A stretch of DNA of 64,000 nt from Takakia lepidozioides (GCA_030704615.1 CM060733.1:11718001-11782000), one strand, 5' to 3'. Positions 1 to 34,319 are shown, numbered from the stretch's first letter. Notes: generated by a model from the letters alone, not told the origin. Numbers and translations are program-made.

Positions 1-1599
1 CTAGTGGTAGTGCTGCTCCGCACATGAATCCCATGCCTCCCATATCTCCTCCCTCAGGAGCAGGAGGTGGACCATCCCGCCTGGGAGCCGGTACCGCCTG
101 AGCTGTAGCCATGGCAGCGAGCCTCTGCTCTAGCTGCTGAAGCCGGTTGGCCATGCCTTGGTCAACACCCTGACCTCCGCGTCCTTGGCCATGTTGAGCT
201 TGCCCTTGGCCTGCACCTCGTGCCCGACCACCTCGTCCTCTCTGGGCTGGTCCACCTCGCCCCCGGCCACCATTGTTCCCTTGGAACTGGCCTGGGCGCA
301 ACTCAGGATGCAAGTCATAACACTGGGCATCTCCATGCCCATACTTGCCACAATGCCCACACTGCAACTGTGCAGGCTGTGCTTGTGCCGGCCTTTTGCC
401 ACTCTCTGGGCAATCTCTCTTGACATGGGGTCCTCCACATGTCCAACATATCACCCCTGGTTGCTGTTGGCCTGCAAAAGATGCCACGGGCCTCTGCACC
501 TGAGGTCCCCTGTAAGCTCCATGGAACTTGGGTTGGGAAACCTTGCCCCCCTGACCACGCTGTTGGGCAGTCCCTTGTGCCTGTGGGCTGGCAGCTGCGC
601 CTCGTGCAGGCATGTCCTTGCCAAATCCAATGGTAACAACTCGCTCCTCCACCATGTTGAGCTCAATCCGCTCAGCCAGCAGAAACACATCTGCTAATGT
701 GGGTTGGGCTGCTTGTAACAGGGTTGCATCCCGCACCCTTCTCCTGAGCTCCTTGTCCAAAATTCCATACCAGAACTGGATTGCCTGAGCTTCAGTAACC
801 CCTTGGGTCACACTTATCAAGCGCCTCATACGAGTGTAGGCCTCTCGCAAGCTCTCACTGGGTTTGCGCTGGAAGTCTTGCAAACTTCGCAGCTTCTCTG
901 TCCGTACACCTTGGTAGTTCCTCCGCAACTCCTGGAAGAACTCCACCACCGGGTTGAATCTAGGCACATGTGTTGTAGTCGTGGCAGGAGGAGTAGTAGC
1001 ACCTTTTGAACTGGTACCACCTGCAGAAGTACCGGCACTACTTGTTCCACTACTAGTGCTGGCAGTGGGAGATATTGGTACTGATGCAGCTACTGGTCGC
1101 GTCGTGCCTCGAGTAATGGAGACGTAGTCAGGTGACCAATACATCCTCCACTCCTCAATCTCTGCTTCATGTCCTCGCCTGAACTCGTGGTAATCGTCCA
1201 TAGGCGGGCCTTCCAAATGCTGGAACAGTCCCTTCCACGCCATGAATGGGGTGAATAGCTGTGGATTGCGCATCTGCTGCAAATCACACCAGCTGTCGAA
1301 CTCCTGGATAAAGTCATCCAACTCGATTGTGCCCACAGCTCCAGAGTACCTACGAGGCCCCTTGGTAGCTCCATACATCTCCTCCATGTCGTCCCACAAC
1401 AATGGCGAATGAAACTGCACACCTGTTGATGAAGCCTCCGAGTCTGTGTCTGACTCTGCACTAGTTGAGGGTGGAGGTGAAGGTGGTCTGAACGAACACC
1501 TCGTCTGTGAACCCACTCTCACTGTTACTGCCTGTAGCCGTACTCCCCTCAAACCCTGGGTAACTCCGTAATGACACTCACAATGTGCACCTCCCCCAC
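1..1599 (-). pseudogene. gag: gag of copy A, with small indels near its 5' end relative to copy B; runs off the window
   Basis: Near-identical to 15211-16813; indels around 1490-1560. Confidence 0.8.
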
Positions 1600-2127
1600 G
1601 TGACACTATAAGGCTCTAGTACTAATTCTAATAGTGACACGGGTAGGCACGGGTGGGCACCTGTTGCAGTAAGGGTCATATCCCAGTGGCTCAGGGCACC
1701 TGCACCTGCATCCACCGCAAGAACTCCTATGGTTGGCTGGTCATCAACCCAGTCTCACCATAGAAGAAACACTGGTGGTCTTGCTGGTCATCACTCCAGC
1801 CTCACCACCGACAACATACTCTAGGATTGACCGGTGATCAAATCCGGCCTAATCCCTATGAAAGCAAGCGCCCACACAAAACCAACATGGCGCACAGTCA
1901 AGCATGCAGGTGTTGGGGGGGATCCAAACACAAGAAATCAAAACATCAACACCCCCACACCAAAATCCAGCTACAATGCTGATCCTGCAGAATATCCCAG
2001 CCCAAAACCCCGGACTGACTGGCCTCCATGAAGAGAGGCTTTGGCAACTACGAGTACAAGGTAATGAAAATAGTACAGAGATGGAGGGAAAGAATAGAAG
2101 CCCGCCCAAGCAAGATCTAATCCTGAT

Positions 2128-2663
2128 TTATGCTATCAACTGCCAGACTTCTCTCAAAGTGCCTCGCTCTGCATGATGGTAAGGTGTAGAAGGTATATCT
2201 ATGTCCAGAAACCTGCCACTAACCTTGTCCCAAGCTACAGTAGCTCGCTCTAACCAACCCTCCTCCTCTTTCTGCCAGGTAGAGACAAAGCAATACTCCC
2301 CTATCTCCCGCTCACTGAACACTAAAGAAAACAAAGGTAGGGTCTGATAGTCTCTCAACTCGAAAGCTTTGAGACGGTTGCGGGTGTCCTCATCGCGAAT
2401 GACTGCATCTCCTTCAAGCAAAACAAACTTGTCATTGCTAATGAACCCCCGCTCGTGGTTGCCTTGTGCAGAGCGTATCCGGCTGCAACCATGTCTGATT
2501 GCACAAACTTGTGCAGCTCCTGCTCCTCTGCTCCAGTACACCACGGCCTTGTGGCTGAACACCTTGGTCCCTGGGGCTGTCTTTGGCTGTGTTCCAAGCC
2601 TAGCTTTCACCCACTTTGGTATTTCACTTACAGCTGCAGAACTGCTGGCTCCAACAGAGTTCT
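2128..2663 (-). pseudogene. Accessory ORF of copy A, N-terminally truncated by a deletion
   Basis: About 13 aa differences over 160 aa versus the C-terminal part of ORF 17334-18083. Copy A lacks ~17870-18175 (3-bp TCT microhomology at the junction). Confidence 0.75.
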
Positions 2664-4774
2664 AAAAATTCCATAGATTTTTAGCAGAGTCCCAAAAACA
2701 AAAACCAGGTCTAGATAGGTAGATTTCCCCTTTCTGCAGCTATCCCCTCAAAAACTGGGTCAAACGGAGCTCATTTAACAAAGATATGACCAACCAGGCT
2801 CTTTAAACATAACACATGTTTTTTTGTTTTTTTTTAACAAGACAAAACAAATACAAGGAAAACTCTTTTTCTTTTTTTTTTCTTTTTTTTTTAATACTTG
2901 TCTTGGTTCCCTGTTCCCTGGTTCCCTAAGAATTCCTTAGATTCTTAACTCAATCTCTCCACAGTGGAATTACCATGATAAAGGTAATGTCCTCATTGGT
3001 ATGCCAGATTTTCAGAATGAGAACACCTTGTTGAAGCTGCTGCTATCAATGCCATCTTATCGTTGTTGTATGAGAGCCCATGTCTAGTGCCCTGTCAGAG
3101 TGACCACAACCAGGATGGCTTTCCGCAACCATTCATGTACTGGGCAAATACATATCAACCACAACAATAAGACCATCACGTTCAATTTGTGATTTCCAAG
3201 GTGGTGCTAATACCTTCATCGACCATTGGCATATACCCCAAGAGCAGCCTGAAGATCGCCATAGCAGAGAGGGTTACAGTATACGCTGGTGCTGTAAACG
3301 CTCAAGCTCTCCAGGACCTCAAACACCACTCTAAACTGGGGTGGTTATTACATCCCCGTGACCAGGGACATGCACAGAACCAAGGCGATGGGATGAAGTT
3401 GCCCCATCTTGAGAACTGATAGCGGGCTTCCAACTAAACGCAAAATCAAAAGGGAGAAGCTCGGCCTGGTGTACCACTTCAAGGACCAAGTGATATAATT
3501 GGACCTGCACCTGCTGGTGGCCGAAATGCCAAATGTACTACAATGTTTTTTTCCTTTTTGTCTCACAATTTCTAACTGCAACTCCGGATCAAAGCACCGC
3601 TGGTCATGTATGTAGAGCCTCACCTGGTCTTCCTTCACTAGGCTGCAATGTTAATATATGAGATCACCCCGTCTCACAAACATTAATGCCGCCACTGTCG
3701 CCTAGACCTGATGCAAGATCTGATCGCAAAGCAGGCTACGCGGCTGGTCCTTCCCTGTGTACATCTATCTCAAGTCACACACGCCGCATCTCATGCTTCT
3801 ACTGCTGATCAGCTTTTCCTTGCTGGACAGCAGCTTACGCACTTGCTAGAAAATCTAGCCTGACCCTGTCCATCCATTTGCTAAGATAAGAAAGCTTGCT
3901 TCCTCGCAATGTGCAGCTAGACAACCTCACATCAACCAGCCCACAACTACTCCTTCATAGTGGCTGGCTATAGTCCAATTTGACAGTGTACTTGAAAAAC
4001 GGGCTGTGTTTCTTGTCTTTCCACACCCAGTCCCCGGAATCAAATTGGCGAAGGTAATTGGCGCCTGAAGGAACCAATGCAGGAAGGGGTTGGTGTGTAG
4101 GCCGTTCACGAGAGAAGGGTTCACGTGGCCTGTTGCTAAGCAGAAAACCCTGATAGCATAGTATGGATTTTCCGGAATGTCAGCAAAGATTGGCCCGAAA
4201 AGGGAACCTGAGGGCCTGACCTTGAACTTCCAACCCTGCAGCAAATGGCCATTGCGAGAGATAGCAAACAATGCAGACTTGCTGCCCTGCAAATCCGAAC
4301 TAACCCAAGCCGGGAGAGACCTAATATTTCATGGAAAGGAAGCCAGTCCCACTCATGCTGGCGGAATATCGCTGGTCACCAAATCCCAGCCAGCGTTTTA
4401 CCTTCGGTGGAACAATCCAACTCACAAAGAATAGGCAGAGCAGAGTAGAGGAGAGGCTAGAGCAGAGGCTGATAGGTGGCAGACCTCCTAGCTCTCCAGC
4501 AGCCCGCCGTAGGTTGAACCTTCCACCCTGAGCCTAGCATGCTTGAAGAAGGCGGGAATCTTCCAGCTCACTCCTTCTTCCTAGCCTCTACCAGCACCAG
4601 CGCAGGTGTAAAACGGCTGTTAAGTAATGCTCAGCAGCCACCTGCAGTTGAGATAACATCAACTGCACCTTCTCCAATTGGGTTTACCAGCAACCTCATT
4701 TCCATTCGGCTGTGGCTCGACCTACTGTCGACTGCGAAAGACCATCGGATGCGCTGCAACACTACATCCCGAGC

Positions 4775-4882
4775 TTAGTCGAAAAGACTGAAACCCATGT
4801 CATCATTAGACTCCTCCTTCGCTTCCTCCTTTTCTCCGGCAGGTGCAGCAGCAGCACCTCCACCAGAGGAAGCCACCACAAC
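4775..4882 (-). pseudogene. Captured fragment of a 60S acidic ribosomal P-stalk protein (P1/P2-type C-terminus)
   Basis: Manual translation of a frame not in the ORF track: VVVASSGGGAAAAPAGEKEEAKEESNDDMGFSLFD*, matching the conserved EESDDDMGFSLFD tail. Confidence 0.9.
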
Positions 4883-5819
4883 CAGGGATGACGCCACCCC
4901 AAACTGTTTGCACTTCGTGATCCAGCCACTCCCGACTGTTTTGGGTCCGAATCCAAAAGTTTACACGAGTCTCGTCTCCCTCCGTCCTAGTGAAAGAGAG
5001 TAAGGAAGCCAACTATCAAAGTCTTCAACCTCCACACCTCTTGGTTTTCAAACTCACGAGTAGAGACGACAACTAAATCTGCGCGCACAGCCCATGGAAA
5101 CAGCAGGGCCAGATGGACTCCCGCCCCAAGATATATATTATAATAATGCTAAAACAAACATTGTATCTAGCTTAGCACTAGCACACTAGATAACGCTCAT
5201 CTCTCTCGAGTGATAAACAAGCTAAAAAGGACACACACTCTCAACACAAGAAATATAAAATCCATCGCTATCACTCTTTAAAATAGAAGTCGAGCCAGGG
5301 GCGCCCCACGCTATGGGGACTCCACCCCACAACAACCTACACTCCCATCATAAGCACACTCAGATCTAAACGCATGAAGGAGCTCGGTCGCGCAGGCTCA
5401 ACTCGAGAGAGATGAGCTGCGCGACTGTCGCTCTCGTGAAGATAAGGCGGTTCAGGTGTCAAACTAAACTTGACACCTGATTTAACACTTGACCTAAATC
5501 CAAGTGTTAAATACAAATAACTAGCTTTATTCTAGTTTTTTTCACACTGTGCTTATTTAACTTGACACCCTGTTTTTAAAGATGGCAGCCTGATAAGGCA
5601 ATGACAGGCCTCTTTCATACCTGGATTTGGTGTGGAATGGAGCATAATGAGGTTTTATTTGCAAAACCTGGCACAAAGCCTCTTGGAAAACAGTGTTGGT
5701 AAGCTCTACTGGACCTTGGCCAGTGATTATTTGCCTTATTTTGCCATCAGACCAGCCACCTGCAATGTATGATTGTTTTTTTGGCCAAGTAGGCTTGGTC
5801 TCGGGCACTCAAAGTGTAT

Positions 5820-6460
5820 GTGTGTCCATATCTTGAGACTGTAACATGGCAAGCCTTTCTTCCATGCCAAGATGCCTTACATGATGCATGTCTTGGGGCA
5901 ACTGTACATGGTGTAGAATGAAGTTGCACTCTGTCTTGTCATGCCCAAGTGGGTCACTTGGTTGCATGTTTGGAGTCTGATAAACTGCAGGCTGGTCCAT
6001 CAAGATGCTTGTGTACACATGTCTTGAATCTATACAATGACAGGCTGTTCTTACCTACCCAAGAGGCCTTGCATGATGCATGTCTTGGGGTACTTACAAA
6101 TGGCAAAGAACAAAGCTGCAATATGTTTTGTCATGCCCAAAAAGATTACTAGGTTGCGTGTTTGAAATCTGGTAAATTGCAGGCTGGTCCTTCAAGCTGC
6201 TTGTATAGACATACCCTGAATCTATTATAGGGCAGGCTGTTCTTACCTACCCATGGAGCCTTGCATGGTGCATGTCTTGGGTCACTTCAAGGTACCTGTG
6301 TATACATATCTTGGATTTGTCATGTGGCAAGTAGTTCTTACATGCCCATGATATGTTGCATGATGCATATCTTGTGGATAATTATGGATGATATAATCTA
6401 AGGCTGCAATTTGACTTGTATTGTGCAAGAGGGTCACTTGGGTACATGTCAGGAATCTGA
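5820..6460. repeat. Diverged tandem repeat, ~190-bp period
   Basis: TGATGCATGTCTTGGG-like block at ~5882, 6075, 6265, 6361; CAGGCTGTTCTTACCTACCC at ~6041 and ~6233. Confidence 0.7.
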
Positions 6461-7247: not shown

Positions 7248-9164
7248 TTAGGCCTCTCTTAGTCTCCTCAGCACTTGGCATGCATCCTTCAGGCTCCCGC
7301 ATTTAGCATACATGTTCACTAAGGTATTCTCCAAATTAATATATGACCCAGTTCCAGTTTTGATAATGTCAGCATGAACCCTTTTGCCCTTTTCCAGGGC
7401 ACATGCATTGAGAATGCAAATGAAGGTGACCAAATCAGGGGTCACCCTTGCCTGTAGCATTTGCTCATAGATCTCAAAAGCTTCCTTACCAAACCCATGC
7501 TGAGCATATCTTGCAATCATCGCACTCCATAACAAATCCCATCTTCAAAGTGGTGAAAGCGGTTGGCGTCCCATACAAAAAATTGCTCGGCCAGCAATCT
7601 TTGAGATGAATTTGGTGGAGGTGTGGCAGTCACCACACACTCGAAGATTCTTGATGAGACGGAGAGGCGTCCTAGGGGTCGTGCTGATCAGCCCAAAACC
7701 ATTGGCCAGCTTCTCACTGTGGTGGCAAGGAGAAACTCCTTTTCCTCCTCCCCCATTTCGCAATACAAAGCGCGTGTCAGGCACATACCCCGCCTCCTTC
7801 ATCTGCCCAGACAATCTTCTCAGCTCAGCATGGATTTCCTTAATTCTGGGATGCAACTTGTCATCTACAATGAAGGTGTGCACCTTGTTGCCAACCTCAA
7901 TGCAGCAGCGACCTGGCTCCTGGCTCCTTTCTAACCCCTTCTGACCTTGATCATTCTTCTCACCTTTGCAGTATCATCCCACCTGCCAACTGCGGCATAG
8001 ATGTTTGATAGCAACACATAAGTCGCGCCATCCTGTTCATCCCGCTAGAGGATAGATGTTGCCGCACGTTCAGCAATCTCCACATTGCCATGGATTTTGC
8101 AGGCACCAAGCAAGGCCTTCCACACCACAACATCTGGATTTCAGTAGGCCAGTGTGGCTGCATACAGTGAGAACACATATAAAGGTGATATTGTCCGGCT
8201 TCAAGCCTTTCTTTTGCAGTCCTTCAAATAGTTGTAGGACCTCTCTATGACAACCATGCTGGGCATATCCTGCAATCATTGCATTCCACGACACCACATT
8301 TCATTTAGCCATATTGTCAAATACTCACTTTGCATCCTCACTGCACCCACATTTCACATACATGTCCACCAGGGCAGCGTCCAGAATGACATTTGGTACA
8401 ATTCCAGCTTTGATGATGTCACCATGGCGCACCTCTTTGCTGGAACGCCACGAAATGCCATGCATCCATGCCTCCATGGAACGCCATGCTCTGCCAGGCT
8501 TGCAAACGCACACAAACATGATGTGGTCGGGCTTCACCCCTTCCCCCAGGCCTCCATCCCGCGCTCTTGCTATGCATATCCTGCAAGCATGGCGTTCCCA
8601 AATCTCATTCAGCCATATTGTTGAACACTCCCTCCACATCCTCAATGCTCCCACATTTGGCATACATGTCTACGAGGGTATTGTTCATAATCACATCTGG
8701 TAGAATTCCAGCTTTGGCGATGCAACCATGCACCTCTTTGCCCTTTTCCAGGGCTGCCAGGCTTGCACACGCAGTGCAAACGCACACAAACGTGATGTGG
8801 TTGGGCTTCACCCCTTCGCACATCATTCCAAGGCCTCCATCCCGCACCCTGCTGTGCATAGCCTGCAAGCATTGAGGTCCATGACACCACATCTCATTCA
8901 GCCATAGTCTTGAAAACTCCCTTCGCATCCTTAATGCACCCACATTTGGCATACATGTCCACCAGGGCAGTGTTCAGGATGACATCTAGTACAATTCTAG
9001 CTTTGACGATGTCGCCATGGACCTCTTTCCCTTTTTCCAGAGCTGCCAGGCTTGCACACACACTGCAAACACAAACAAATGTGATGTGGTTGGGCTTCAC
9101 CCCTTCGCACATCATTTGCTTATAGGTCTGCAAAGCCTCCATCCCGCACCCTTGATGTGCATAT
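7248..9164 (-). pseudogene. PLS-class PPR-E-DYW RNA-editing factor pseudogene, 3' part
   Basis: Frameshifted PLS repeats (WNAMIAGYAQHG, GVKPNHITFVCV, ALVDMYAKCG); E motifs; PG box (EPGRCCIEVGNKVHTF); DYW domain with HSEKLA, KNLRVCGDCH and RFHHFEDG at ~7536-7930. Confidence 0.9.
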
Positions 9165-9509
9165 TGTCGTGCGCATACATATCGCTACACAACTACATCG
9201 CTGTCCAAACCACACCACACATATATGCACAATAAAGTAGTCTACCCCAATCGCCCCCCTAGCTGGTGGATAGGTCCCTCTACCTCCAGATAGCTACAAG
9301 ATGTAATAGCCACAGCCGTACTAAGTCCTCTATCACTGTCCCTATTGTACTCAAACTCTATAGACCAAGAGGCCGGGTACAAGAGTAGCCCCATCGTTAG
9401 TCGCCATCTTGCAATCTGTGAACTTGAGCCAGGACCTCGTGTGTTCAAGGTCTCCTAGTAGCTGGGCCTTGCGTTTCTTGTTAGCCTTCCATGGTTGTAT
9501 CCACTCCCA

Positions 9510-12479
9510 CTATCCAATGCAATGTGGACATAACCAATCCCCATCCGGAACCATCTCAAGAGGTGGAGTCAAGCACCCCATATGCCAACCTCTAGAGCAT
9601 CGATCACACACCAGCATGGTGGCTGCCCCTTTAGCAGACCCACACAACATGCACCTCAAACCTGCAGATACCACTGCCAGGTTTGGGTCAATCCTGCCAT
9701 CGACATTCGGAAGGTGACATGGCGCACAATTACGCACATGGTCCTTCCAAGCTATGCCATCCCGACCCTCCAAGACCAAGACGCCTGAGGGCAAGACCTC
9801 TCGAACCCTCAAAATAACACGTCCTGCAGTCACATCCAGGGTCGTAGGAGCAGTCTGCTGCAGATAGACATAGTCACCAGGGTTGAATCTCCGAACCCCA
9901 GGATGATAGCCCCCACCACGTATGGTAGCATACCTCAACGTATCACGGTGTTGTGCAATGGCAAGGTTCTCGAAAGCCATGGGCATGACTCTCTTGAACA
10001 ACTCTGCACGCTGCTCACATGCACGTGCCCACACATCCGGATCGTCAAGGTTAAGAACGGTAGCAGCTTCTCTGCGAATGGATGTAGGCAAATCCGGCTC
10101 TCGGCCAAAGAGAAGAAAGTATGGTGAGAAGGAGGCAAGTGATGCTTGCTTGCTGAACCTGTAGCCCATGGCTAACCAGGGTAACTGAAGGTCCCAATCT
10201 CCTAGGTGTCCCTTCTGCAAGCCATACTTGCGCAAACCCCTCTTTACTGTCTGAACAACTCTCTCTGCCAAGCCATCGGCCTCAGGATGATCCCGAGAAG
10301 TGGTGCGGTGGTCTATCAAGGCCTTGTCACACAAAGCCTGAAACTCCCCCAAGAACTCTCTCCCTTGGTCCGTGAGTACCTCAGCTGGAGCACCGAATCG
10401 GCTAAGCACACAATCCAAGAATGCATACGCAGCTCCCTCACTAGCCTTATCAGGCAATGGAACCAATTCAATCCACTTGGAGAAGTGCTCCACCATCACC
10501 AACACGTACTTGTTGTGGCGCATGGTCAGTGGCAACGGCCCTGCGAAGTCAAGACTCCACCTGTAGCCCAATCCCATGATCGGAAGAGGGTGCAATTGTG
10601 GAGTAGGGGCGTTGAATGAAGCACGCACCCTGTCACACACCATGCACCTAGCCACAAATTGTTGCACCTCTGTGTGCATACCACGCCACCAATACTGCCC
10701 CTGCAGTAGACTATGAGTGCGTCGCACCCCAAAATGCCCCAACTCCTCATGGGCATGCCGCACTAACCGTGCCCGCTGTGTTGGGTGAGGCACAATCCTC
10801 ACTCGACCATCCTCCCACACTCGGAGCAGGTGTGTCCCCTCCCACCTGAACCTCTTGGCTCGTTGTAGGATCCGATCCCTCTCCTTGGCAGTCATAGTGG
10901 CTGCCGTGTCTCCACTGCGGAGGTCCAACACAACTGTCCTCATGTATACTTTGCCACTCCTCTCTTGCTCATTGGCCTCAGGGTCCTCAGACACTTGATC
11001 TACAGTCATCCCTGTTGTAGGTCCAACCTGGCCTTCCGCTGCCAAGATACACAGAAATGCAGATGCATGCCATCCGGGCACCATCTCCTCGTCCGTCTCA
11101 CCATGCCACCGAGCTCCAGTGTCATCCTGCTGGCTCGTGCATGGATTGCGACTCAACCCATCTGCATTTCGATTGACCAAACCCGGTCGATGCACCACCT
11201 GAAAGTCATACTCTTGAAGGATGAGTGCCCACCGTGCAAGCTTCCCCGTAAGCTTGTCTGACTCCATCAACCACTTGAGTGGTTGGTGATCCGTGACAAG
11301 GGTGAAGAGATTGCCGTATAGATAGCACCTGAAGTGTGCCACGGCCCACACTGCAGCTAAGCATTCTCCCTCATATGAGCTATACTTAGACTCTGCAGCA
11401 TTGTTCGAGCGGCTAGCATAAGCCACTACGAACTCTCTTCCCTCATCATCCACCTGTGTGAGCACCGCTCCAAGCCCCAGCATGCTCCAATCTGTATGCA
11501 GCTGAAAAGGACGCCCCCTGATAGGTCGTCTCAAGATGGGCGCCGAGGTCAACCTCGCCTTGAGCTCTTGAAAAGCTTGTTCTTGCTCATCTTCCCACTG
11601 CCACTCCTGGTCCACCTTGGTCAGCTTGGTTAGAGCCTTTGCAATGGCACTAAATCCCTTAACAAACCGTCTGTAATAGTTTGCTAACCCCATGAAAGCT
11701 CGAACTCGGCTCACATCCGTGGGGCGTGGAACCTGTGCAATGGACTCTACCTTAGTCTGCTGTACCCCCAATCCTCCAGGATATATCATGTGACCCAGAT
11801 ACTCAATCTGGTTGTGGAAAAACTTGCACTTGCCCGGATGTAACTTCAATCCGTGCGTCCTCAAGCGCTCAAATACCCCCTGAAGGTGTCTCTCATGCTC
11901 CTCCACCGTAGCACTAAAGATGATGATGTCATCTATGTAGCACCGAGCAAACTCCACCCCTGCTAGAATCCTGTCCATGACTCTTTGAAACTCAGCGGGA
12001 GCGTTTTTAAGCCCAAATGGTAAGAACCGCCACTGGTATAGGCAATCCTTCCCGTGCTCATTGATCCCCCAGAATGCCGTCTTTTGCTTATCCGCCTCCT
12101 TGATCGGCAACTGGTGATATCCGGATCGTAAATCCAACGTGCTAAAGACCTTGGAATGCCCAATGGCATCAAAGATCTCCTCTGGTGTTGGCATGGCATA
12201 CCTATCGGACTTGGTCTGACGATTTACAGGCCGGTAATCACCGCACATACGTCTCTCCGTCCAATTGCCATAGACATCCTTCTTAGCTGGCATCACTGTG
12301 GCTGAAGCATACTCTCCACCAGAGAGCTCCACCAAACCTGCCTCCCAGAGATCTTGAGTCCTCATCTGAATCAAAGACCTCTCCATGTCACTGTATCTAT
12401 AGGGTCTCCGAAAGATTGGCGTGTCAGTGGCCAACTCAATACGGATCTCTTGACCCTTCAGTGCTCCCAAGTCCTTCAA
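9510..12479 (-). CDS. pol: pol C-terminal part: reverse transcriptase, RNase H, integrase, PHD finger
   Basis: [32 protein letters not shown]; RNase H TDWS/YEGECLA/TDH/NADGLSR; integrase H-H-C-C and D(SLDF)-D(TDQG)-E(GLAER). RT-RH-IN order indicates Ty3/Gypsy. C4HC3 PHD at 9519-9653. Confidence 0.95.
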   Translation of the reverse strand: MKDLGALKGQEIRIELATDTPIFRRPYRYSDMERSLIQMRTQDLWEAGLVELSGGEYASATVMPAKKDVYGNWTERRMCGDYRPVNRQTKSDRYAMPTPEEIFDAIGHSKVFSTLDLRSGYHQLPIKEADKQKTAFWGINEHGKDCLYQWRFLPFGLKNAPAEFQRVMDRILAGVEFARCYIDDIIIFSATVEEHERHLQGVFERLRTHGLKLHPGKCKFFHNQIEYLGHMIYPGGLGVQQTKVESIAQVPRPTDVSRVRAFMGLANYYRRFVKGFSAIAKALTKLTKVDQEWQWEDEQEQAFQELKARLTSAPILRRPIRGRPFQLHTDWSMLGLGAVLTQVDDEGREFVVAYASRSNNAAESKYSSYEGECLAAVWAVAHFRCYLYGNLFTLVTDHQPLKWLMESDKLTGKLARWALILQEYDFQVVHRPGLVNRNADGLSRNPCTSQQDDTGARWHGETDEEMVPGWHASAFLCILAAEGQVGPTTGMTVDQVSEDPEANEQERSGKVYMRTVVLDLRSGDTAATMTAKERDRILQRAKRFRWEGTHLLRVWEDGRVRIVPHPTQRARLVRHAHEELGHFGVRRTHSLLQGQYWWRGMHTEVQQFVARCMVCDRVRASFNAPTPQLHPLPIMGLGYRWSLDFAGPLPLTMRHNKYVLVMVEHFSKWIELVPLPDKASEGAAYAFLDCVLSRFGAPAEVLTDQGREFLGEFQALCDKALIDHRTTSRDHPEADGLAERVVQTVKRGLRKYGLQKGHLGDWDLQLPWLAMGYRFSKQASLASFSPYFLLFGREPDLPTSIRREAATVLNLDDPDVWARACEQRAELFKRVMPMAFENLAIAQHRDTLRYATIRGGGYHPGVRRFNPGDYVYLQQTAPTTLDVTAGRVILRVREVLPSGVLVLEGRDGIAWKDHVRNCAPCHLPNVDGRIDPNLAVVSAGLRCMLCGSAKGAATMLVCDRCSRGWHMGCLTPPLEMVPDGDWLCPHCIG

Positions 12480-12939
12480 ACTGAAGGCAAAGCAATTCCT
12501 GTAAGCCCTCAGGAACCGCCGTATACGTCGTCTCTCTCCTCCGGTGACAATGGGTCCAATGTCAGGCTCCCAATTGTCCTCCGTAACTGCAACCTGAAGT
12601 CCAGTGGGCTTAGAGGTAGAGGACGCGTCCCGTGGTTGCTATGCTGCAACCTCTTGAGCAGTACCCCCTTCCTGCTCAGTCAATGACAAGGCCTCATCCT
12701 GCCCCATCATCTCATCATTGAGAACCTCCTCATCCCGAGAAGAATCCCCAACCTCATCCATCACAGCTGCCTTCGCTGCCAACTCCCTCTGAACCTCGAG
12801 CACCTCCCACGTGTGCCATGGATGTCTACACCTCGTGGTCCTCACCGGCTCGCCCCCACTCGCTGCCTGTACCGTCTCGGTAGGCAGAGAGACCGTCAAG
12901 GGAAGTGCACTCCGCACTCTACGTTGCTCAGCCATAGCC

Positions 12940-13885
12940 AAGCTGACAATCCAGGTCAAGCAATTGAGATCCATTGCTTGCCCCAGCACCTGACGACGTG
13001 ATGCCTCAGAAAGAGAAGGCACCGCCGTGGTCCCAGTGGAAAACCCCATAGCCCGCTCTCGCTCGTCGGCATTAGGCTCCACTAACTGCTGCAACTGAGC
13101 ATCCCACAAGAGGCCAGGTCCACCATCCCGAAAAGCATGGGATCCTGGGAAGCTGAGCAGTGTAGGTAATGCTGCTCGTGGTTGACCCACCCTGTTGACC
13201 ACTGCCAAAGGCGAACGGTCATCGTGTCTCACACGTTGAGACTGCCTTCCTGTGTCCAAAATGCCATCCACGGTGAGGTGTGCTGGCGCTGCACCCCATC
13301 AAATGCACGCTTGAGCAGTGCGGGTGGCATCAAGTTAGTCCACCATAGTCGTGGACGATGAGCCCGTGACCCCACTGCAGCTGCATCCAGCAACACTGCT
13401 GACCCAAGCCACGACCGGACTTGATGCACACTGGCCATCACCCTGGCCCGAGAATCACCCATCAGTGGTACATTCTCCAAGATGTATGCTGGAGATACAG
13501 GTTGATGAAGCTGCAAGCAGCGCAAAATCCGCATCATCTCCCAAAACAGACCCATCCTCGAGTCTCGCAATCCATTGCCATGCCTGGCTGATGAATGCCC
13601 TTGGCAGGGCCAACCTGCCACTACCAGATCAATGGAGCCAACCCGCTCCAAATCCTGCGCCCCCAGCAACGCAATGTTGCTGGCAAGGCCTGCTGATATC
13701 CACGAACTGCAGACACCGGCAACAACTCAGGGTACTGCTGCACCATCTGAGCAACATGGCGCAGTGAGACGCGTCGTTCAGTCTCATCCCTCTCCACATA
13801 CAGGTAACGTCGAACTCGTACACCTGCCTGCAGCACTGCAGCCAATCCAGTGCTGATCCCGCCAAATAAGTCCAGAAGGCATATG
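12940..13885 (-). pseudogene. DNMT3-like C5 DNA cytosine methyltransferase domain within pol (two frameshifts)
   Basis: Motif I LLDLFGGISTG; motif II YVERD; motif IV IDLVVAGWPCQG (Cys at 13604-13606); motif VI YILENV; motif VIII AHRPRLWWTN; motif IX ERERAMGF; motif X RRQVLGQAM. Spread over ORFs 13621-14241, 13229-13669 and 12639-13271. Confidence 0.92.
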
Positions 13886-14173
13886 CCTTCATCCGGCCGC
13901 TGCCACACAAGAGGTGTGGTGTCCAATGGCGACAACTGAGGTGGCCCTCGTACAATTACCGCACTCTCCTCCTCTCCTGACGGTACAAAAGCTTCTACCC
14001 AAGCTTGTTGCACCCGTCCATCAGCAGCGTGCTGCAAATCCTTGCTCGTACCCCACAATGGAGTGTGAGCAACCATGACAGGCAACTCCGCCGTACCATG
14101 CATATCATCCTGCTCTGCTGGAGGTGGCACATCCTCTGCATGGGCATTGCCTTCCAGCAACTCTCCAGGCCAG

Positions 14174-15205
14174 CTAACTGCAGCTGTGAAGGCGGCTAGT
14201 GTTGGCATTTGCCCGCTGCTGAGCAGCTGCAATACCCCCAATGAATGTCACAGGGAGCTGTGCACGGCGACCATCCCCTGACTGCCATCCAGGCCTGTAG
14301 GATGCTGACTCCTCCCAGAAATCCAGGGTGAAGCCCATGGGGTATAACACTGCCCCACCAACGAGGACATCGTAAGAGACCGCGTCTGTCACAATGGCCT
14401 TGGCTCGCATTACTGAGCCATTTACAGGATGATCCGGTTGCACTCTAATAGCCAACTGATGCCGTGTCATGCCGCGAGCCTGCTCTGATCCTCCCAGAGA
14501 TGTCTGTATCTGGAAAGGACAAGACTCCATATCCGCCTCCATGAGGCCCAAACCTGCAATAGCAGCTCTGCCCAACCGGTACTCTTGACCCCTGTACTTC
14601 TTGCCTGCCGGTCCACTCAAAGTGAAAATGCCTCCCTGGTTATCTAACAAGACAACTCCAGGTGTCACCATGGCACACTCAATGGCTGGCCTAGCTGGCA
14701 GCTCCGTCAATCTGGCAGCTGCAGCTTGCCAGGGCGCTGCCGTGGCAGTCTTGACCCTCAAATCCGAGGATCCCTCTGCCACTACACCTTCCAGTAACTC
14801 CGCAGAAGATGAAGTGACCTCTCCACTCTTGCAGAGTGTTGCTGCTAGTCTGAACACTGCAGCTGGTCTCACTCCCGGCGTCGCAATCATGGTCGCCGAG
14901 AACAGTGGGGCTTGACACACAGAGGTGGCTGCTCCCAATAACACACCGGCTGCACTAGCCTTGGTAGCAGGTGTCAGTGCTGCACGTGTAGGTCTCCCCA
15001 ATGGCATAGTAACCTCCGCCTCGGTAACAGTCGGGCGAGAACTAGGTGCCATGGATGGCGTTGACACTGTCTCCGCCAATGTGAATGACTGGGGAAGCCT
15101 CGCCTGACGGCTTGCCTCCCCACGCTGTGGATCCAATTCCACCTCTGCACCTCGTGGCTCAGGAACTCGTGCTGCTCCTCGAGTCACGGCTGCAGCAGAC
15201 TCCAC
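14174..15205 (-). CDS. pol N-terminal linker plus retropepsin-like protease region (catalytic D-S/T-G not found)
   Basis: In frame with gag after one TAG. Flap-like QIQTSLGG and YDVLVG motifs present; position between gag and RT. Confidence 0.6.
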   Translation of the reverse strand: MESAAAVTRGAARVPEPRGAEVELDPQRGEASRQARLPQSFTLAETVSTPSMAPSSRPTVTEAEVTMPLGRPTRAALTPATKASAAGVLLGAATSVCQAPLFSATMIATPGVRPAAVFRLAATLCKSGEVTSSSAELLEGVVAEGSSDLRVKTATAAPWQAAAARLTELPARPAIECAMVTPGVVLLDNQGGIFTLSGPAGKKYRGQEYRLGRAAIAGLGLMEADMESCPFQIQTSLGGSEQARGMTRHQLAIRVQPDHPVNGSVMRAKAIVTDAVSYDVLVGGAVLYPMGFTLDFWEESASYRPGWQSGDGRRAQLPVTFIGGIAAAQQRANANTSRLHSCS

Positions 15206-16813
15206 CTACTCTAGTGGTAGTGCTGCTCCGCACATAAATCCCATGCCTCCCATATCTCCTCCCTCAGGAGTAGGAGGTGGACCATCCCGCCTGGGAGCCG
15301 GTACCGCCTGAGCTATAGCCATGGCAGCGAGCCTCTGCTCTAGCTGCTGAAGCCGGTTGGCCATGCCTTGATCAACGCCCTGACCTCCGCGTCCTTGGCC
15401 ATGTTGAGCTTGCCCTTGGCCTGCACCTCGTGCCCGACCACCTCGTCCTCTCTGGGCTGGTCCACCTCGCCCCCGGCCACCATTGTTCCCTTGGAACTGG
15501 CCTGGGTGCAACTTAGGATGCAAGTCATAACACTGGGCATCTACATGCCCATTTTTGCCACAATGCCCACACTGCAACTGTGCAGGCTGTGCTTGTGCCG
15601 GCCTTCTGCCATTCTCTGGGCAATCTCTTTTGACATGGGGTCCTCCACATGTCCAACATATCACCCCTGGTTGCTGTTGGCCTGCAAAAGATGCCACGGG
15701 CCTCTGCACCTGAGGTCCCCTGTAAGCTCCATGGAACTTGGGCTGGGCAACCTTGCCCCCCTGACCACGCTGTTGGGCAGTCCCTTGTGCTTGTGGGCTG
15801 ACAGCTGTGCCCCGTACATGCATGTCCTTACCAAATCCAATTGTAACAACTCGCTCCTCCACCATGTTGAGCTCAATCCGCTCAGCCAGCAGAAACACAT
15901 CTGCTAATGTGGGTTGGGCTGCTTGTAACAGGGTTGCATCTCGCACCCTTCTCTTGAGTTCCTTGTCCAGAATTGCATACCAAAACTGGATTGCCTGAGC
16001 TTCAGTAACCCCTTGGGTCACACTTATCAAGCGCCTCATACGAGTGTACGCCTCTCGCAGGCTCTCATTGGGTTTGCGTTGGAAGTCTTGCAAACTTCGC
16101 AGCTTCTCTGTCCGTACACCTTGGTAGTTCCTCCGCAACTCCTGGAAGAACTCCACCACCGGGTTGAATCTAGGCACATGTGTTGTAGTCGTGGCAGGAG
16201 AAGTAGTAGCACATTTTGAACTGGTACCACCTATAGAAGTACCAGCACTACTTGCTCCACTACTAGTGCTGGTAGCGGGAGCTATTGGTACTGATGCAGC
16301 TACTGGTCGCGTCGTGCCTCGAGTAATGGAGACGTAGTCAGGTGACCAATACATCCTCCACTCCTCAATCTCTGCTTCATGTCCTCGCCTGAACTCGTGG
16401 TAATCGTCCATAGGCGGGCCTTCCAAATGCTGGAACAGTCCCTTCCACGCCATGAATGGGGTGAATAGCTGTGGATTGCGCATCTGCTGCAAATCACACC
16501 AGCTGTCGAACTCCTGGATAAAGTCATCCAACTCGATTGTGCCCACAGCTCCAGAGTACCTACGAGGCCCCTTGGTAGCTCCATACATCTCCTCCATGTC
16601 GTCCCACAACAATGGCGAATGAAAGTGCACACCTGTTGATGAAGCCTCCGAGTCTGTGTCTGACGCTACAGTAGTTGAGGGTGGCGGTGAAGGTGGTCTG
16701 AACCGAATACCTCGTCTTGTGAACCCACTCTCACTGTCACTGCTTGTAGCCGTACTCCCCTCAAAACCCTTGGGTAACTCCGTAATGACACTCACAATGT
16801 GCACCTCCTCCAC
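15206..16813 (-). CDS. gag: gag with capsid-like region and two zinc knuckles
   Basis: FQRKPNESLREAYTR major-homology-like motif; CWTCGGPHVKRDC and CGHCGKNGHVDAQC; RGG-rich tail. ORF is called from GTG; first ATG at 16597. Confidence 0.85.
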   Translation of the reverse strand: MEEVHIVSVITELPKGFEGSTATSSDSESGFTRRGIRFRPPSPPPSTTVASDTDSEASSTGVHFHSPLLWDDMEEMYGATKGPRRYSGAVGTIELDDFIQEFDSWCDLQQMRNPQLFTPFMAWKGLFQHLEGPPMDDYHEFRRGHEAEIEEWRMYWSPDYVSITRGTTRPVAASVPIAPATSTSSGASSAGTSIGGTSSKCATTSPATTTTHVPRFNPVVEFFQELRRNYQGVRTEKLRSLQDFQRKPNESLREAYTRMRRLISVTQGVTEAQAIQFWYAILDKELKRRVRDATLLQAAQPTLADVFLLAERIELNMVEERVVTIGFGKDMHVRGTAVSPQAQGTAQQRGQGGKVAQPKFHGAYRGPQVQRPVASFAGQQQPGVICWTCGGPHVKRDCPENGRRPAQAQPAQLQCGHCGKNGHVDAQCYDLHPKLHPGQFQGNNGGRGRGGPAQRGRGGRARGAGQGQAQHGQGRGGQGVDQGMANRLQQLEQRLAAMAIAQAVPAPRRDGPPPTPEGGDMGGMGFMCGAALPLE

Positions 16814-17333
16814 GTGACACTATAAGGCTCTAGTACTAATCTAATAGTGACACGGGTGGGCACCTGTTGCAGTCTAAGGGTCATATCCCAATGGCTCAGG
16901 GCACCTGCACCTGCATCCACCGCAAAAACTCCTATGGTTGGCTGGTCATCAACCCAGCCTCACCATAGAAGAAACACTGGTGGTCTTGCTGGTCATCACT
17001 CCAGCCTCACCACCGACAGCATACTCTAGGATTGACCGGTGATCAAATCCGGCCTAATCCCTATGAAAGCAAGCGCCCACACAAAACCAACATGGCGCAC
17101 AGTCAAGCATGCAGGTGTTGGGGGGGATCCAAACACAAGAAATCAAAACATCAACACCCCCACACCAAAATCCAGCAGCCACGCTGATCCTGCAGAATAT
17201 CCCAGCCCAAAAACCCCGGACTGACTGGCCTCCACCAAGAGAGGCTTTGGCAACTACAAGTATAAGGTAATGAAAATAGTACAAAGATGGAGGGGAAGAA
17301 TAGAAGCCCGCCCAAGCAAGATCTAACCCTGAT

Positions 17334-18083
17334 CTATGCTATCAACTTCCAGACTTCTCTCAAAGTACCTCGCTCTGCTTGATGGTAAGGTGTAGGAGGT
17401 ATATCTATGTCCAGAAACCTGCCACTAACCTTGTCCCAAGCTACAGTAGCTCGCTCTAACCAACCCTCCTCCTCTTTCTGCCAGGTAGAGACAAAGCAAC
17501 ACTCTGCTATCTCCCGCTCACTGAACACTAAAGAAAACAAAGGTAGGGTCTGATAGTCTCTCAACTCGAAAGCTTTGAGACGGTTGCGGGTGTCTTCATT
17601 GCGAATGACTGCATCGCCTTCAAACAGAACAAACTTGTCCTCGCTAATGAACCCCCGCTCGTGGTTGCCTTGTGCAGAGCGTGTCTGTCTGCAACACTGT
17701 CTAATTGCACAAACTTGTGCAGCTCCTGCTCCTCTGCTCCAGTACACCACGGCCTTGTGGCTGAACACCTTGGTCCCTGGAGCTGTCTTTGGCTGTGTTC
17801 CAAGCCTAGCTTTCACCCACTTTGGTATTTCACCTACAGCTGCAGAACTGCTGGCTCCAACAGAGTTCTGACTGTCCAAGGCGATATTGAGGCCCTCAAT
17901 GCCAACTACAGCAGTCTGTTGTCTACTGCTAATGCCTGACTCCCAGTATGCAATCAACTCGTCCAACTGTTCTCCACTCAAATCAGTCTGAGTTCCTTGG
18001 GAAACATAGATCCTGTCCCCTTGTGTGCACAGGCTAAGAGAAGAGACCTGCCCTTCAATTACGTCCTCATTTCCCCCAGCCAT
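17334..18083 (-). CDS. Accessory ORF of unknown function upstream of gag (249 aa)
   Basis: ATG-initiated, same strand as gag-pol, C-terminal 160 aa and stop position shared with copy A. Confidence 0.65.
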   Translation of the reverse strand: MAGGNEDVIEGQVSSLSLCTQGDRIYVSQGTQTDLSGEQLDELIAYWESGISSRQQTAVVGIEGLNIALDSQNSVGASSSAAVGEIPKWVKARLGTQPKTAPGTKVFSHKAVVYWSRGAGAAQVCAIRQCCRQTRSAQGNHERGFISEDKFVLFEGDAVIRNEDTRNRLKAFELRDYQTLPLFSLVFSEREIAECCFVSTWQKEEEGWLERATVAWDKVSGRFLDIDIPPTPYHQAERGTLREVWKLIA

Positions 18084-20699
18084 ACAGGGAGTACATCCAC
18101 AGGTTTGTCTCTCATATAGGCCAGCACAGGTTCTAGAAACAGGATTGTGGATATTTTATGGCACACTCACACTCTAAAAATTCCATAGATTTTTAGCAGA
18201 GTCCCAAAAACAGAAACCAGGTCTAGGTAGGTAGATTTCCCCTTTCTGCAGCTATCCCCCCAAAAACTGAGTCAAACAGAGTCCATTTGACAAAGATATG
18301 ACCAATTTGGCTTTAAATCATTTAAATTAGATCAAAAGGGCCCTTTTTTTTTTTTTTTTTTTTTTAAAGGGTTTTCAAATTTAAAAATTTAAAGTTACAC
18401 CCAAAACATTTGGTAACTGGTTCCCGGTTCCCTAAGTTCTATATGGTTTCCTAGGTTCCCTAGCCACGTGCCCTATAATTTATAGGATTTAGTTGTGTTT
18501 ACAAATGCACCCCCCACAGCTCTTGGTTACCAGTGACCTGCTCTCCTCCAGTCGAGATCCGTAGCTATGCCGAGCCTTAATCCTTTGCACCAATATTCCC
18601 AACAAAAGCAAGAGCACTTACAATGCAACCCCGAAAAGCACCAGAGCTAACTAGCTTGATCAAGAACGCTTACAGCCCTTCATGCGTGCTGATTTTTCAA
18701 GGTGACAACAACAGATCTGCTATCACTGATTGTGAAAGCCTTTCCATGGAGTTGGCACAGGCTGCCCTCAAGTTCTGGATTGTTCACATAGACCGAGCAT
18801 GTCATGTAGTGAGCTGGGCCCCTTCTGTCTTCAAGGGACCGGCAGTTTCAGATGACACCACATTAATGCCTAAATTGTCATCCTTCCCTGCTCCTTTTTA
18901 TCTGATTCCTCCACGGTCAGATTCTTCAAGCCGCATCAGATTCCAGCTTACAAGCCTTTCAATTGACGCTCAAAGTGCCACATCCACACTTGCTTGGTTA
19001 TTGGGCAGAACTGACGTCGATCAGGCAAGAAGAGAAATTTCTGGATCAGACCAGTGCATTGATCATTTCCCAAGACCACGTATGCTGCTTCTTTCGGCGC
19101 TTCTCCAGAAGCCAGAGTCATTAAGTTATGGCGCTCCCCTCAGCAAACCATCCGCCAGCGAGCCTATTCACAGTTCTGCTCTGTCCATCTTTCGCAACAG
19201 CAGTTTTGCTCTCTTGCAAACCCTAGCTTCTAGTCAGCGCAAGTCATCCCTTCAATTCTTGATGGCCTTGCTCCCTCCTCTGGCAGGTGCATAAGTTACA
19301 AGGCTGCTTCACATGTTTGCTCATCCTCCAGCATTCAATGAATGGACGAATGGCTGCACTGCAGGACACCACCAGGCAGTAGAATACGCCAAGTTCCTTG
19401 GTATTCCTATCTCTTGCTCATTCCACAGCCCCTCAACATTACCAATCATATTCGAAGCTCTTGGAGTTCCTGCTCCTGGTCCGATTCAATTGCAGCAAAA
19501 GCCAGACATGCTAGAAAAACTGCCAGACTCTGATCAGGCTAAGAAAGAAGATACAGCCACTGTGACAGCTGCCAATGTGCCCACATGCGTCAAGAAAAGC
19601 TACAGCCCAACTTCAGTGGAAAGATGTGCTTTGCCTGCAGAGGAGCCTGATACAGACAGTATGTTCAGTTTGCCACTTGCAGGACCAGGCTCTCTAATTG
19701 AGGAGCCAGAATGTGGAAATGATGAAAATGGAGAGAGTGAGGTGTGCTCTACTGCAAAGGATGTTGGAGTGGGCATCTTTCAAATTGCTACCCCAGGTAC
19801 AGAGGAAGCGAAGAGAAGTTCGGAGGAAGGAAACATGCGGGTTGCCAGTGATGGTATTGCTATTGACCAGGATGCTACCTCAGAAAATCAATTAGATTCT
19901 GCTCTTCCGCTGCCTTTCCTGACCGCACAATACGTCACTCTTTCCCATTTCTTCCTTAACGGCTGCTGCGCCTCACTGAGGCTCGAAGAACTGCTACGAT
20001 CACATGTTCGATCTCCAAGTCTTTACGTCCGCTTCCACCTCATTTCTTCCCTGCGTTTGTGTGGGTGTGACGAGCAGCAAGGTAAGAGGCACTTGCAGTT
20101 ACCCTGCACACGACCTCACTGACCGCTTCTGGTCGGTGCACATCGAACTAAGGCGAGCAGCCCATACTCTACCTCCTGACTGCCCCACCTCGCCCTCTCT
20201 GCACGCCGTTCCATTCTCCCTCATCTCCATCTCCAGGCACGGAAGTTCTACTCATCTGCTCGATTACAGGTACCCCTTTAAGTCTCGCACTTGGTCAGTT
20301 TCCGAACGGCCAATCGCTGCTACACCATGATATCTCCTCACCGACCAAAACGAAGGCTGCTTCCCCGCAGTATAGCTCCGTCCTGGCCCGGCGGCCTCAT
20401 GCCAGAACCAACGCTATCCTCAACCAGTAGAACAAGACCAGTTCTTTGCCCCTGCTTGCCATGCAGCCTGCCTCCATGGACCATCTATATACCCAGAAAC
20501 CAACGATGATCGAAACCAGCATGTTTTTTTTTTTTAAAGCTTCTCAAACTAAGCATTACTTACACACATGTAATCATACAAGTGCTAACCCTCAACTCCT
20601 ACCTTGCACTCACAGGTAAGAGGTGATCTTTCTCGAGTGATAAGAAGCATAGAAACACTGTTGACACAAAACATGTGAAATCCATCTCTATCACTCGTT

Positions 20700-20987
20700 A
20701 TAATAGAAGTCGAGCCAGGGGCACCCCAAGCTATGGGGACTCCACCCCACAACAACCTACACTCCCATCATGAGTACACTCAGATCTAAACGCATGCAAG
20801 AGCTCGGTCGCGCAGGCTCAACTCGAGAAAGATGAGCTACGCGACTGCCGCTCTCGTGAAGATAAGACGGACCAGGTGTCAAACTAAACTTGACACCTGA
20901 TTTAACACTTGACCTAAATCCAAGTGTTAAATACAAATAGCTAGTTTTATGCTAGCTGTTTTCACACTGTGCTTATTTAACTTGACA
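20700..20987 (-). other. Hairpin-rich 5' terminal region of the DNMT element (copy A equivalent 5280-5567)
   Basis: Stems at 20724-20738, 20807-20845, 20873-20899 (perfect 10 bp), 20900-20932 (perfect 12 bp) and ~20935-20960. Confidence 0.8.
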
Positions 20988-21480
20988 ATATCAATCATTG
21001 CACTCCACAACACCACCTCTCGTTCAGCCATACTGTTGAACACTTCCTTGGCATCCTTAATGCACCCACATTTGACATACATGTCCACCAGGGCAGTGTT
21101 CAGCATGACACCGGGTACAATTCCAGATTTGACGATGCAACCATGGACCTCTTTGCACTTTTCCAGGCTGCCAGGTTTGCACACGCATTGCAAACACACA
21201 CAAACATGATGTGGTCGAGCTTCACCCCTTCCCCCATCATTTGCTGATAGGTCTCCAAAGCCTCATCCCGCGCCCCTGCTGTACACACCCTGCAAGCATC
21301 GCGTTCCACGACACCACATCTCGTTCAGCCATAGGTTGAACACTCCCTTGGCATCCTCAATGCTCCCACATTTGGCATACATATCCACCAGAGTAGTATT
21401 CAGGATGACATCTGGTACAATTGATGATGTCACCATGGATCTCTTTGCCAGGGCTGCCAGACGCACTGCAAACATACACA
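20988..21480 (-). pseudogene. PLS-PPR pseudogene, 5' part (same gene as 7248-9164)
   Basis: Frameshifted PLS repeats ending at the insertion junction in VVLWSAMI. Confidence 0.85.
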
Positions 21481-22133
21481 AACCTCTGTTTACCAACTTT
21501 GAAAGTCTCAAGGCTGAGCCAAAAGCCCAGGCCCTCCTGAGGCCTAGTTATTGGGCAAATCACACACAGCAGATTGATGCTTGTGTGAAGGGATTTCTAG
21601 AGGATATCTGGAAAACCCGGATTAATTCTATATAGGAAGGTAAGTCTTACTACCAACGTCAGCCCTTGAGCCGTTACACAGTCGGGGGAACTGCCTGGAG
21701 GGCGATGTCCGCAGCCGGCCGGTGAAGAGAAGAATTGAGGACATGCCCGGAGGCGACGGTGATTCATGGAGATCAGAGATGAACATCCGCACTCAACCTC
21801 GGGGCGCAACAATGTTGCATCCGACGCCTCCTCCCAGTAGGACTTGTACCCCCTCTCCTACAACATCCATGGAATCGCTGCCAGACTCGGGACAACATCC
21901 CGAGGATGAGCATGCTGCTCCTATTATCGTTACCCAATACAACATCCTAGTCGTGGAGCGAGATGTGTCGGCCTCACAGTGGAGAATTGCACGGACCCTG
22001 TTAGAGGGCTGCTTGGGACTTAGACGCTTTTACGGGTTCTGTGGGGTACCCTTAATTTTGCGCAGACTTATGAATGGTAGACTGAGACCAACATGAGCCT
22101 TAGGGGTGGCAAGCGCAGGCTTTAGGGGGGGTA

Positions 22134-34264: not shown

Positions 34265-34305
34265 GATGAGGCCAATCCCAAGGACGATCGCGTACTGAAC
34301 TCTAA

Positions 34306-34317: not shown

Positions 34318-34319
34318 AG

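Follow-up and report, generated by a model that had tools for sequence, protein, structure and literature searches.

In Takakia lepidozioides, an abundant family of Gypsy-DNMT3 retrotransposons has a hypervariable zone in its 5' leader, with short pieces that match likely host transcripts. Two copies of the element were found in the stretch of 64,000 nucleotides analysed here (GCA_030704615.1 CM060733.1:11718001-11782000; called the window below, with positions counted from its first letter), which is plant nuclear DNA with genes of the PPR-DYW and F-box types and, at 28070-35047, a complete chromovirus. Copy B, on the minus strand at 9165-20987, is present as a whole within a PPR-DYW gene into which it inserted, and of the other copy, A, the 5' portion is seen (1-5567), truncated by the window edge.

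A mosaic leader zone in two unrelated versions

The backbone of the two copies is 91-97% identical (3.1-8.6% mismatches, depending on the region), as a preliminary description of this DNA had claimed. BLAST showed 96.0% identity between 1-2663 and 15211-17869, 94.0% for a conserved 133-bp block on the minus strand (2661-2793 in A, 18173-18305 in B) and 89.4% for the terminus (5199-5567 and 20626-20987). Both copies also present the T-tract followed by GGTTCCC repeats that had been noted (plus strand, 2819-2926 in A and 18344-18460 in B; A-tracts and GGGAACC in the sense RNA), which form the inner border of the zone. The GGTTCCC repeats are found at 2905 and 2920 in A and at 18419, 18426 and 18454 in B, and elsewhere in the 64 kb three times on the plus strand and once on the minus strand. 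The variable zone occupies 2927-5194 in A and 18461-20620 in B, starting right behind a predicted self-priming primer site. From the primer-site arm to GGTTCCC it measures 2268 bp in A and 2160 bp in B, a difference of 5%, so that the two versions are indeed of nearly equal length.

Concerning their sequence, the two versions are unrelated by all the comparisons made, in agreement with the preliminary description. The best local alignment score was 27, against 24.3 +/- 1.6 (maximum 27) in 30 shuffles; the best tblastn match had an E-value of 0.27, and the best blastn matches (E 3e-5 to 0.06) were T-runs. Neither zone matched any other part of the 64-kb window. The coding appearance attributed to the cargo holds in patches, as in a plus-strand frame of 513 codons with a single stop in zone B, and does not hold elsewhere, since the frames of zone A contain 29-41 stops each.

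Contigs of four of the ten listed sequencing runs were compared with the zones: X1 and X5 (DNA) and X6 and X9 (RNA-type), with a match threshold of 80% for zone A and 88% for zone B. The RNA status of X6 and X9 is a software guess, no listed run being recorded as RNA, a blank in the records that was not used as evidence. X6 behaves like RNA, with zero depth on 5358-5565, where the DNA runs peak, and a depth of 916 on the ribosomal protein piece described below. Zone A was present in 30/30 bins of X1 and 28/30 of X5, and zone B in 30/30 bins of both. As these two DNA runs come from different studies, the zones are not assembly artefacts. Fixed differences of about 1% separate X1 and X5 from the window in either zone, and the two runs have such letters in common, which fits multi-copy subfamilies or a different individual.

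The summed contig depth in X1 falls from 2-7 x 10^5 over the backbone to 650-1,200 in zone A's core and 420-820 in that of zone B, and in X5 it is about 900-1,200 in the backbone and about 2-6 in the cores, so the cores are roughly 200-1,500 times shallower in the DNA runs; these depths sum overlapping contigs, are not copy numbers and were interpreted only in their direction. The control flank is itself a PPR repeat of depth above 10^6, and X1 comprises 3.0 million records in 253 Mb. Across zone B, the X1 depth goes down in steps (240,005, 75,150, 14,388, 2,687) to 420 and up again (2,250, 5,977, 38,106, 133,991, 593,084), and a similar stepwise rise toward both edges was observed in zone A. 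In other copies A recurs only in part: an X5 contig contains 3835-4249, preceded by 294 letters unlike A, and an X1 contig omits 3252-3697. In an X9 contig, 54 letters separate the last 52 bp of the terminus from the GGTTCCC repeats, which indicates that very short forms of the zone exist.

The stepped depth at either edge and the partial occurrence of A elsewhere show that the zone changes piece by piece and not by the swap of whole cassettes. Each version makes up a small share of the family, and tens to hundreds of versions likely exist. The core depth far below that of the backbone and the unrelated versions sustain the earlier claim that the slot turns over far faster than the backbone, while the stepwise depth and the partial sharing of A speak against the term interchangeable cassette. 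The size constraint, also claimed, does not follow from equal length in two copies (n=2), and shorter forms occur among the X9 and X1 contigs.

Each zone is a mosaic and not a block. RNA-type contigs match at least five pieces in A and at least three in B, with sizes of 60-444 bp, covering as lower bounds about 600 of 2,264 bp in A (about 26%) and about 820 of 2,151 bp in B (about 38%). On A, 97-100% of the matched RNA-type contigs continue into unlike sequence. These partial host-gene pieces are flanked by retrotransposon sequence and come from at least two donors (at least five contigs in A, three places in B), of which a single one could be named. The piece concerned encodes the C-terminus of a 60S acidic ribosomal protein, stop codon included, in the element's sense (4775-4882, minus strand; PF00428, E 7.4e-9, 36.5 bits against a cut-off of 28.1). 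It also matches P0/P1/P2 tails in PDB, as well as an X6 contig (depth 916) that has 6 nt inserted and whose loose end follows 4882; the RNA-type match extends over about 4823-4882, its left edge being derived from bin depths. It is the sole Pfam match above cut-off among 130 stop-to-stop segments, in which four other weak matches (E 0.027-0.049) were taken as chance, and the only cargo piece for which a homologue was found. The proposal that the cassette is a mosaic with host transcript pieces is thus supported by both the RNA-type matches and the ribosomal protein piece.

Another donor piece in A (3979-4395, minus strand) is itself divided into 3979-4193 and 4363-4395 by a foreign insert of 169 bp (4194-4362). 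X6 and X9 contigs, from two studies, run directly from 4193 to 4363, so the 169-bp stretch was inserted later into an earlier piece. The insertion caused no loss and no duplication (both 0), and 0 letters are shared at 4193/4363. The possibility that the 169 bp are an intron was rejected, as the skipped stretch has the ends CC..GC. The sole open frame of 3979-4193 on the minus strand is on the sense strand of the element. The remaining pieces of A are one of 60 bp (4462-4521; X6 loose ends of at least 255 letters before 4462, and behind 4521), one of 80 bp (4662-4741; X6 contig of 170 nt with a low depth of 4.8) and one of 151 bp (4945-5095; end of an 871-nt X6 contig, with 5 other letters and 7 gap letters).

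In B, the longest piece (444 bp, 19453-19896, plus strand) matches the middle of a 2,927-nt X6 contig with 16 other letters and a 6-nt gap. One plus-strand frame has 0 stops in 147 codons and the other five have 4-9; because the sole open frame is on the plus strand, the piece appears to be antisense to the element. It is followed by a piece with RNA-type matches in two runs (19928-20137; X9 and X6 contigs, which have extra sequence at 20024/20025) and by a 167-bp piece (20336-20502) found in a 510-nt X6 contig and in X5, common to many DNA contigs, with an X1 depth of about 5,600-6,000. The half of the zone next to the T-tract (2935-3978 and 18470-19452) is without RNA-type match in both copies, and the half next to the primer site has several. 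Stretches that no RNA-type contig covers were not taken to be silent.

Searches for further homologues of the cargo gave none for B 19295-20119 among proteins of lengths 151-482, none for A 3930-4328 among longer proteins, and none for the whole B plus-strand frame among 1.84 billion representatives. No usable match for 18581-19291, whose recognition score was low, was found in Atlas, and one minus frame of each cassette (2/12 frames) had 0 matches in PDB. NCBIfam returned two weak matches far under cut-off for 13 queries, Rfam 0 matches in 1-22000, viral contigs 0 by protein and by pattern, and genome contigs 0. A metagenome locus (L001) was discarded as a chance 21-base match in bacterial DNA.

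Capture route and rival explanations

The zone probably arises by repeated capture of host RNA pieces through template switching of the reverse transcriptase (RT), followed by passive copying. The element RNA would start inside the 5' terminal repeat and prime itself just behind it; host RNA would be co-packaged with the element RNA, and the RT would switch onto the host RNA and back. Captures could persist in the leader between the primer site and the conserved block, where foreign sequence would break no open reading frame (ORF), and every new capture or deletion would found a subfamily. Random-ended events and crossovers between copies would erode the middle more than the edges, giving a U-shaped depth. 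The cargo would decay neutrally, as passengers reshuffled between copies, and the methyltransferase (DNMT) would act on the element's own cDNA, without a shown link to the cargo. The mosaic, the nested insert and the graded sharing are observed directly; the RNA route and the neutrality are our inference. Regarding neutrality, 13 of the 16 differences between 19453-19896 and its RNA contig are listed, 3 of them silent and 10 replacing, so there is no purifying signal in this piece. The 513-codon frame of B was rejected as a selected gene: it has no homologue, it contains these 3 silent and 10 replacing differences, and its length is reached by 2-4% of random mosaics made of real coding pieces (32/2,000, or 74/2,000 if one orientation is used), although by 0/500 Markov controls.

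Several points weigh against RNA capture. Exon-exon junctions and microsimilarity at the joins would support it, and the contigs expose only 30 loose letters in which to see them. The apparently antisense piece 19453-19896 is unlike the product of a plain minus-strand switch onto mRNA; its origin would call for a switch on the plus strand, an antisense template or a route through DNA. Some 62-74% of each zone, the 1 kb by the T-tract among it, lacks both an RNA-type match and a protein homologue, and only one donor is named. With the guessed status of X6 and X9, some of the RNA-type contigs may be transcripts of other copies; the piece 20336-20502 is shared by many DNA contigs, X1 shows no separate donor contig under 19453-19778, and contig depth cannot be equated with copy number.

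Capture at the DNA level, in which filler DNA or cDNA would be copied into breaks of a dispensable spacer, as in Pack-type elements, and then copied by the element, is possible but rather unlikely. At least one apparently antisense piece beside sense pieces, the 169-bp insert without loss or duplication, and the large share of cargo without RNA-type match would fit it. However, no intron was recognised in any matched piece, the skipped stretch having CC..GC ends, and the named donor is a ribosomal protein gene abundant in X6. Mixed orientation does not separate the routes, as maize Sirevirus captures show no orientation bias according to the available part of 10.1101/777037. Decayed nested insertions of other transposons, which the preliminary description had named beforehand, beside an alignment of the two cassettes to each other, as an outcome that would speak against it, are nearly excluded; neither outcome was observed. 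Some parts are deeper than the cores in X1 (A 3798-4005, about 3,000; B 20278-20501, about 5,800) and much of the cargo is unidentified, but 0 transposon domains were found in 12 frames or in the 130 stop-to-stop segments of the zones, nothing matches elsewhere in the 64 kb, the cores are among the shallowest parts, and the ribosomal protein piece is present. Neither transposon domains nor high-copy repeats fill the zone.

It has also been considered whether the cargo is selected, shielding the element from silencing or feeding small RNAs and methylation onto donor genes, with a length kept near 2.2 kb. Both versions lie at one place with a 5% difference in length, the family is very abundant, none of the Markov controls and only 32-74 of the 2,000 random mosaics reach the 513-codon frame of B, and maize data partly support an advantage of capture (available part of 10.1101/777037). 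This reading is improbable nonetheless: the length rests on n=2 with shorter forms existing, A has no long frame, the differences in 19453-19896 are mostly replacing, and either zone has a CpG observed/expected ratio of 0.51, inside the range seen in gag, pol and host genes (0.44-0.58). In the same available text, the maize authors deem the case not fully convincing. Equally doubtful is a standing gene-sampling slot, where every full-length copy would carry its own host-mRNA patchwork behind the self-priming site, in hundreds of versions, the DNMT3 would methylate the patchwork in the particle, the insertions would seed small RNAs and methylation against different host genes, and selection would keep the slot filled.

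Backbone, ends and surroundings

Copy B encodes the accessory ORF, gag, a C5 methyltransferase, RT, RNase H, integrase and a PHD finger. Gag is found on the minus strand at 15206-16819 (PF03732, E 2e-4, under the family cut-off) and, in A, at 1-1600, cut by the window edge and 96.7% identical to B. The accessory ORF of B (17334-18155, minus strand, 273 codons from stop to stop) matched no Pfam or NCBIfam family. Its similarity in both copies, claimed previously, was confirmed by comparison, but the counterpart in A (2128-2663, minus strand) is about 300 bp shorter, lacking what corresponds to B 17870-18172; at this stretch 17 X1 contigs carry on in the B form. An X6 contig overlaps part of the accessory ORF upstream of gag, and hence the ORF may be transcribed.

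The methyltransferase region (13229-14247, minus strand, two reading frames; PF00145, E 1.8e-11) sits between gag and RT, and all matches of its PDB search (19/19) were DNMT3A/B/C. A DNMT3-related domain without introns is thus located in pol, in a region broken by frame changes in copy B. RT, RNase H, integrase and PHD, identified by domain search and homologues, follow in the Ty3/gypsy order RT, RNase H, integrase at 9510-12638 (minus strand, 1,042 codons open), the pol region of copy B being interrupted by stops and frame changes. No aspartyl protease family was matched in 14174-15205, and the active-site motif expected of these proteases is not visible in copy B (14560-14620). No chromodomain was matched in the element, whose end is the PHD finger.

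What had been called the terminal 370 bp is an LTR-like (long terminal repeat) sequence of 350-357 bp with TG...CA ends on the sense strand, named here repeat A. It lies on the minus strand at 5211-5567 in copy A, where loose ends of contigs coincide with both borders (one of X5 starting precisely at 5211, one of X9 at 5567), and at 20638-20987 in copy B, by sequence comparison. Two short perfect hairpins with arms of 10 and 12 bp are located near its outer end (5453-5512 and 20873-20932), the same in both copies, and the first one repeats the 9 terminal bases.

Directly behind repeat A, a primer site complementary over 16-18 nt to the element's own 5' repeat is predicted on the minus strand of both copies: 5195-5210 in A, pairing with 5401-5417 within the repeat, and 20621-20637 in B, pairing with 20821-20838 as an 18-nt inverted repeat of 89%. 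The predicted arrangement corresponds to that of self-priming elements such as Tf1 and Tcn1 (PMC6317226). The fold of copy A has -89.8 kcal/mol and a z of -5.5 (0/200 shuffles), a value inflated by the window picked around the repeat, and that of copy B a z of -2.9 (2/200 shuffles). Among 81 predicted pairs compared between A and B, 62 are unchanged, 1 is compensatory, 6 are one-sided, 7 broken and 5 gapped. On the sense strand, the conserved block of either copy ends in a splice-acceptor-like site (18174-18180 in B), and a donor-like site occurs just behind the primer site in B (about 20607-20612), with none at that place in A. The cargo, whose sense strand contains 41-46 ATGs, may lie within an intron.

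At the other end of copy B, the 3' terminal segment (9165-9250, minus strand), preceded by a purine tract on the sense strand, is a candidate repeat B indicated by an X5 loose end. In two X5 contigs, repeat A is joined at 5211 to sequence like 9227-9250 (22/24 letters, compared by eye). No second terminal repeat is found in copy B, whose ends are not repeated, and it would have the form A-coding-B, as read from one row of these comparisons. A 4-bp target-site duplication (9161-9164, plus strand, partner 20988-20991) flanks the insertion within the PPR-DYW gene, and the ends of copy B (9165-9168 and 20984-20987) would make an 8-bp palindrome if joined in a circle. The end palindrome, the DDE integrase, the 4-bp duplication and the absence of an LTR pair suggest that a circle, opened at the B|A junction, was the form from which copy B integrated. 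Foamy virus work offers a precedent for integrases that cleave circle junctions. At 20988-20995, the PPR target seems by eye to be 4 bp short beside the duplication when compared with the neighbouring PPR motifs.

The gene disrupted by copy B comprises 7283-9163 and 20988-21483, and the PPR motifs at a summed X1 depth above 10^6 indicate that the host has a very large PPR family, an abundance that would suit a seed-free plant. The chromovirus at 28070-35047 is very young, with 728-bp LTRs that are 100% identical and a single ORF of 1,542 codons encoding gag, protease, RT, RNase H, integrase, SH3 and a chromodomain; its CpG ratio is 0.9, unlike the rest of the window. An F-box gene with a KIB1-4/Kelch propeller is found at 60306-61526 in a single frame of 406 codons. 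Tandem arrays are located to the right of copy A (192-bp units, 5867-6281) and at 55299-57391, where the array is longer and diverged.

Relation to known elements and significance

By similarity ranks, the backbone appears to belong with the Gypsy-DNMT3 elements of Klebsormidium, a group named streptophyte Gypsy-DNMT3 in the accessible text of a 2026 preprint (10.64898/2026.05.21.726589). A DNMT-RT protein of K. nitens (P0049) shares 49% identity with RT-integrase, over 87% of the query, and 47% with the DNMT piece, for which a Marchantia protein reaches 65%; between P0049 and the N-terminal DNMT piece no significant match was obtained. RT-integrase had 339 homologues at E <= 1e-50 among 7,997 scored, and among the best 120 matches listed were proteins from Calypogeia, Riccia, Marchantia, Klebsormidium, Closterium and chlorophytes, including DNMT- and PHD-bearing Gypsy proteins. 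KnitGypsy-Dnmt3 of K. nitens likewise has a DNMT3-like domain inside the Gypsy pol, and DIRS-like split repeats are described for it (A-coding-B-A-B for DIRS elements) in the available sections of PMC5890265. The A|B junction of the X5 loose end fits these split repeats, although copy B shows only A-coding-B. As far as those sections go, KnitGypsy-Dnmt3 has few copies in K. nitens, unlike the very high abundance in a land-plant host here, and a leader zone of host fragments and self-priming, both proposed in the present work, are not described; the term PHD occurs 0 times in the main text of PMC5890265, in contrast to the C-terminal PHD here.

Primer sites complementary to the own 5' repeat, as predicted here, are reported for the Tf1/Sushi, Tcn1 and TAR clades of Ty3 elements in the accessible part of PMC6317226 (Neumann et al. 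2019). Those clades are chromoviruses, whereas the element studied here ends in a PHD finger and has no chromodomain match.

Gene capture by LTR elements is already known. Chimeras of several genes made by template switching have been described (PMC5131818, Tan et al. 2016), and likewise for maize Bs1 (PMC13317346), where the consulted text of both sources also presents mosaics of partial host-gene pieces in LTR elements, secondary copying of the chimera and the template-switching model proposed here. The cargo likely belongs with these LTR-mediated retrocopy chimeras. It differs from what those texts describe in that the gag-pol layout is kept, the cargo lies in the leader and the copies differ from each other. 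In maize Sireviruses, which are also LTR elements with exon fragments and are at the origin of the camouflage and crosstalk idea, 3% of the elements carried gene fragments and 15% of those at least two, according to the available part of 10.1101/777037 (Muyle et al.). Here, by contrast, 2/2 copies carry several pieces, and the depth ratios suggest many versions. To our knowledge, the gene-capturing maize Sireviruses have no DNMT. Searches of the open-licence PMC and bioRxiv literature revealed no report of a variable host-fragment zone in a Gypsy-DNMT3 leader, nor of a family-wide capture zone in such a leader.

Gene capture by LTR elements is usually viewed as a rare accident in crippled copies. 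In the family described here, capture looks family-wide, takes place at one fixed position and occurs in elements that keep the gag-pol layout. The many cargo versions would provide a large natural set of capture junctions, in which the RNA or DNA route, the orientation and the donor bias could be counted with the genome. The same set bears on the idea of camouflage and epigenetic conflict, in an element that brings its own methylase. Moreover, with this backbone the Gypsy-DNMT3 elements come to include a high-copy family of a land plant, whose ends are unusual.

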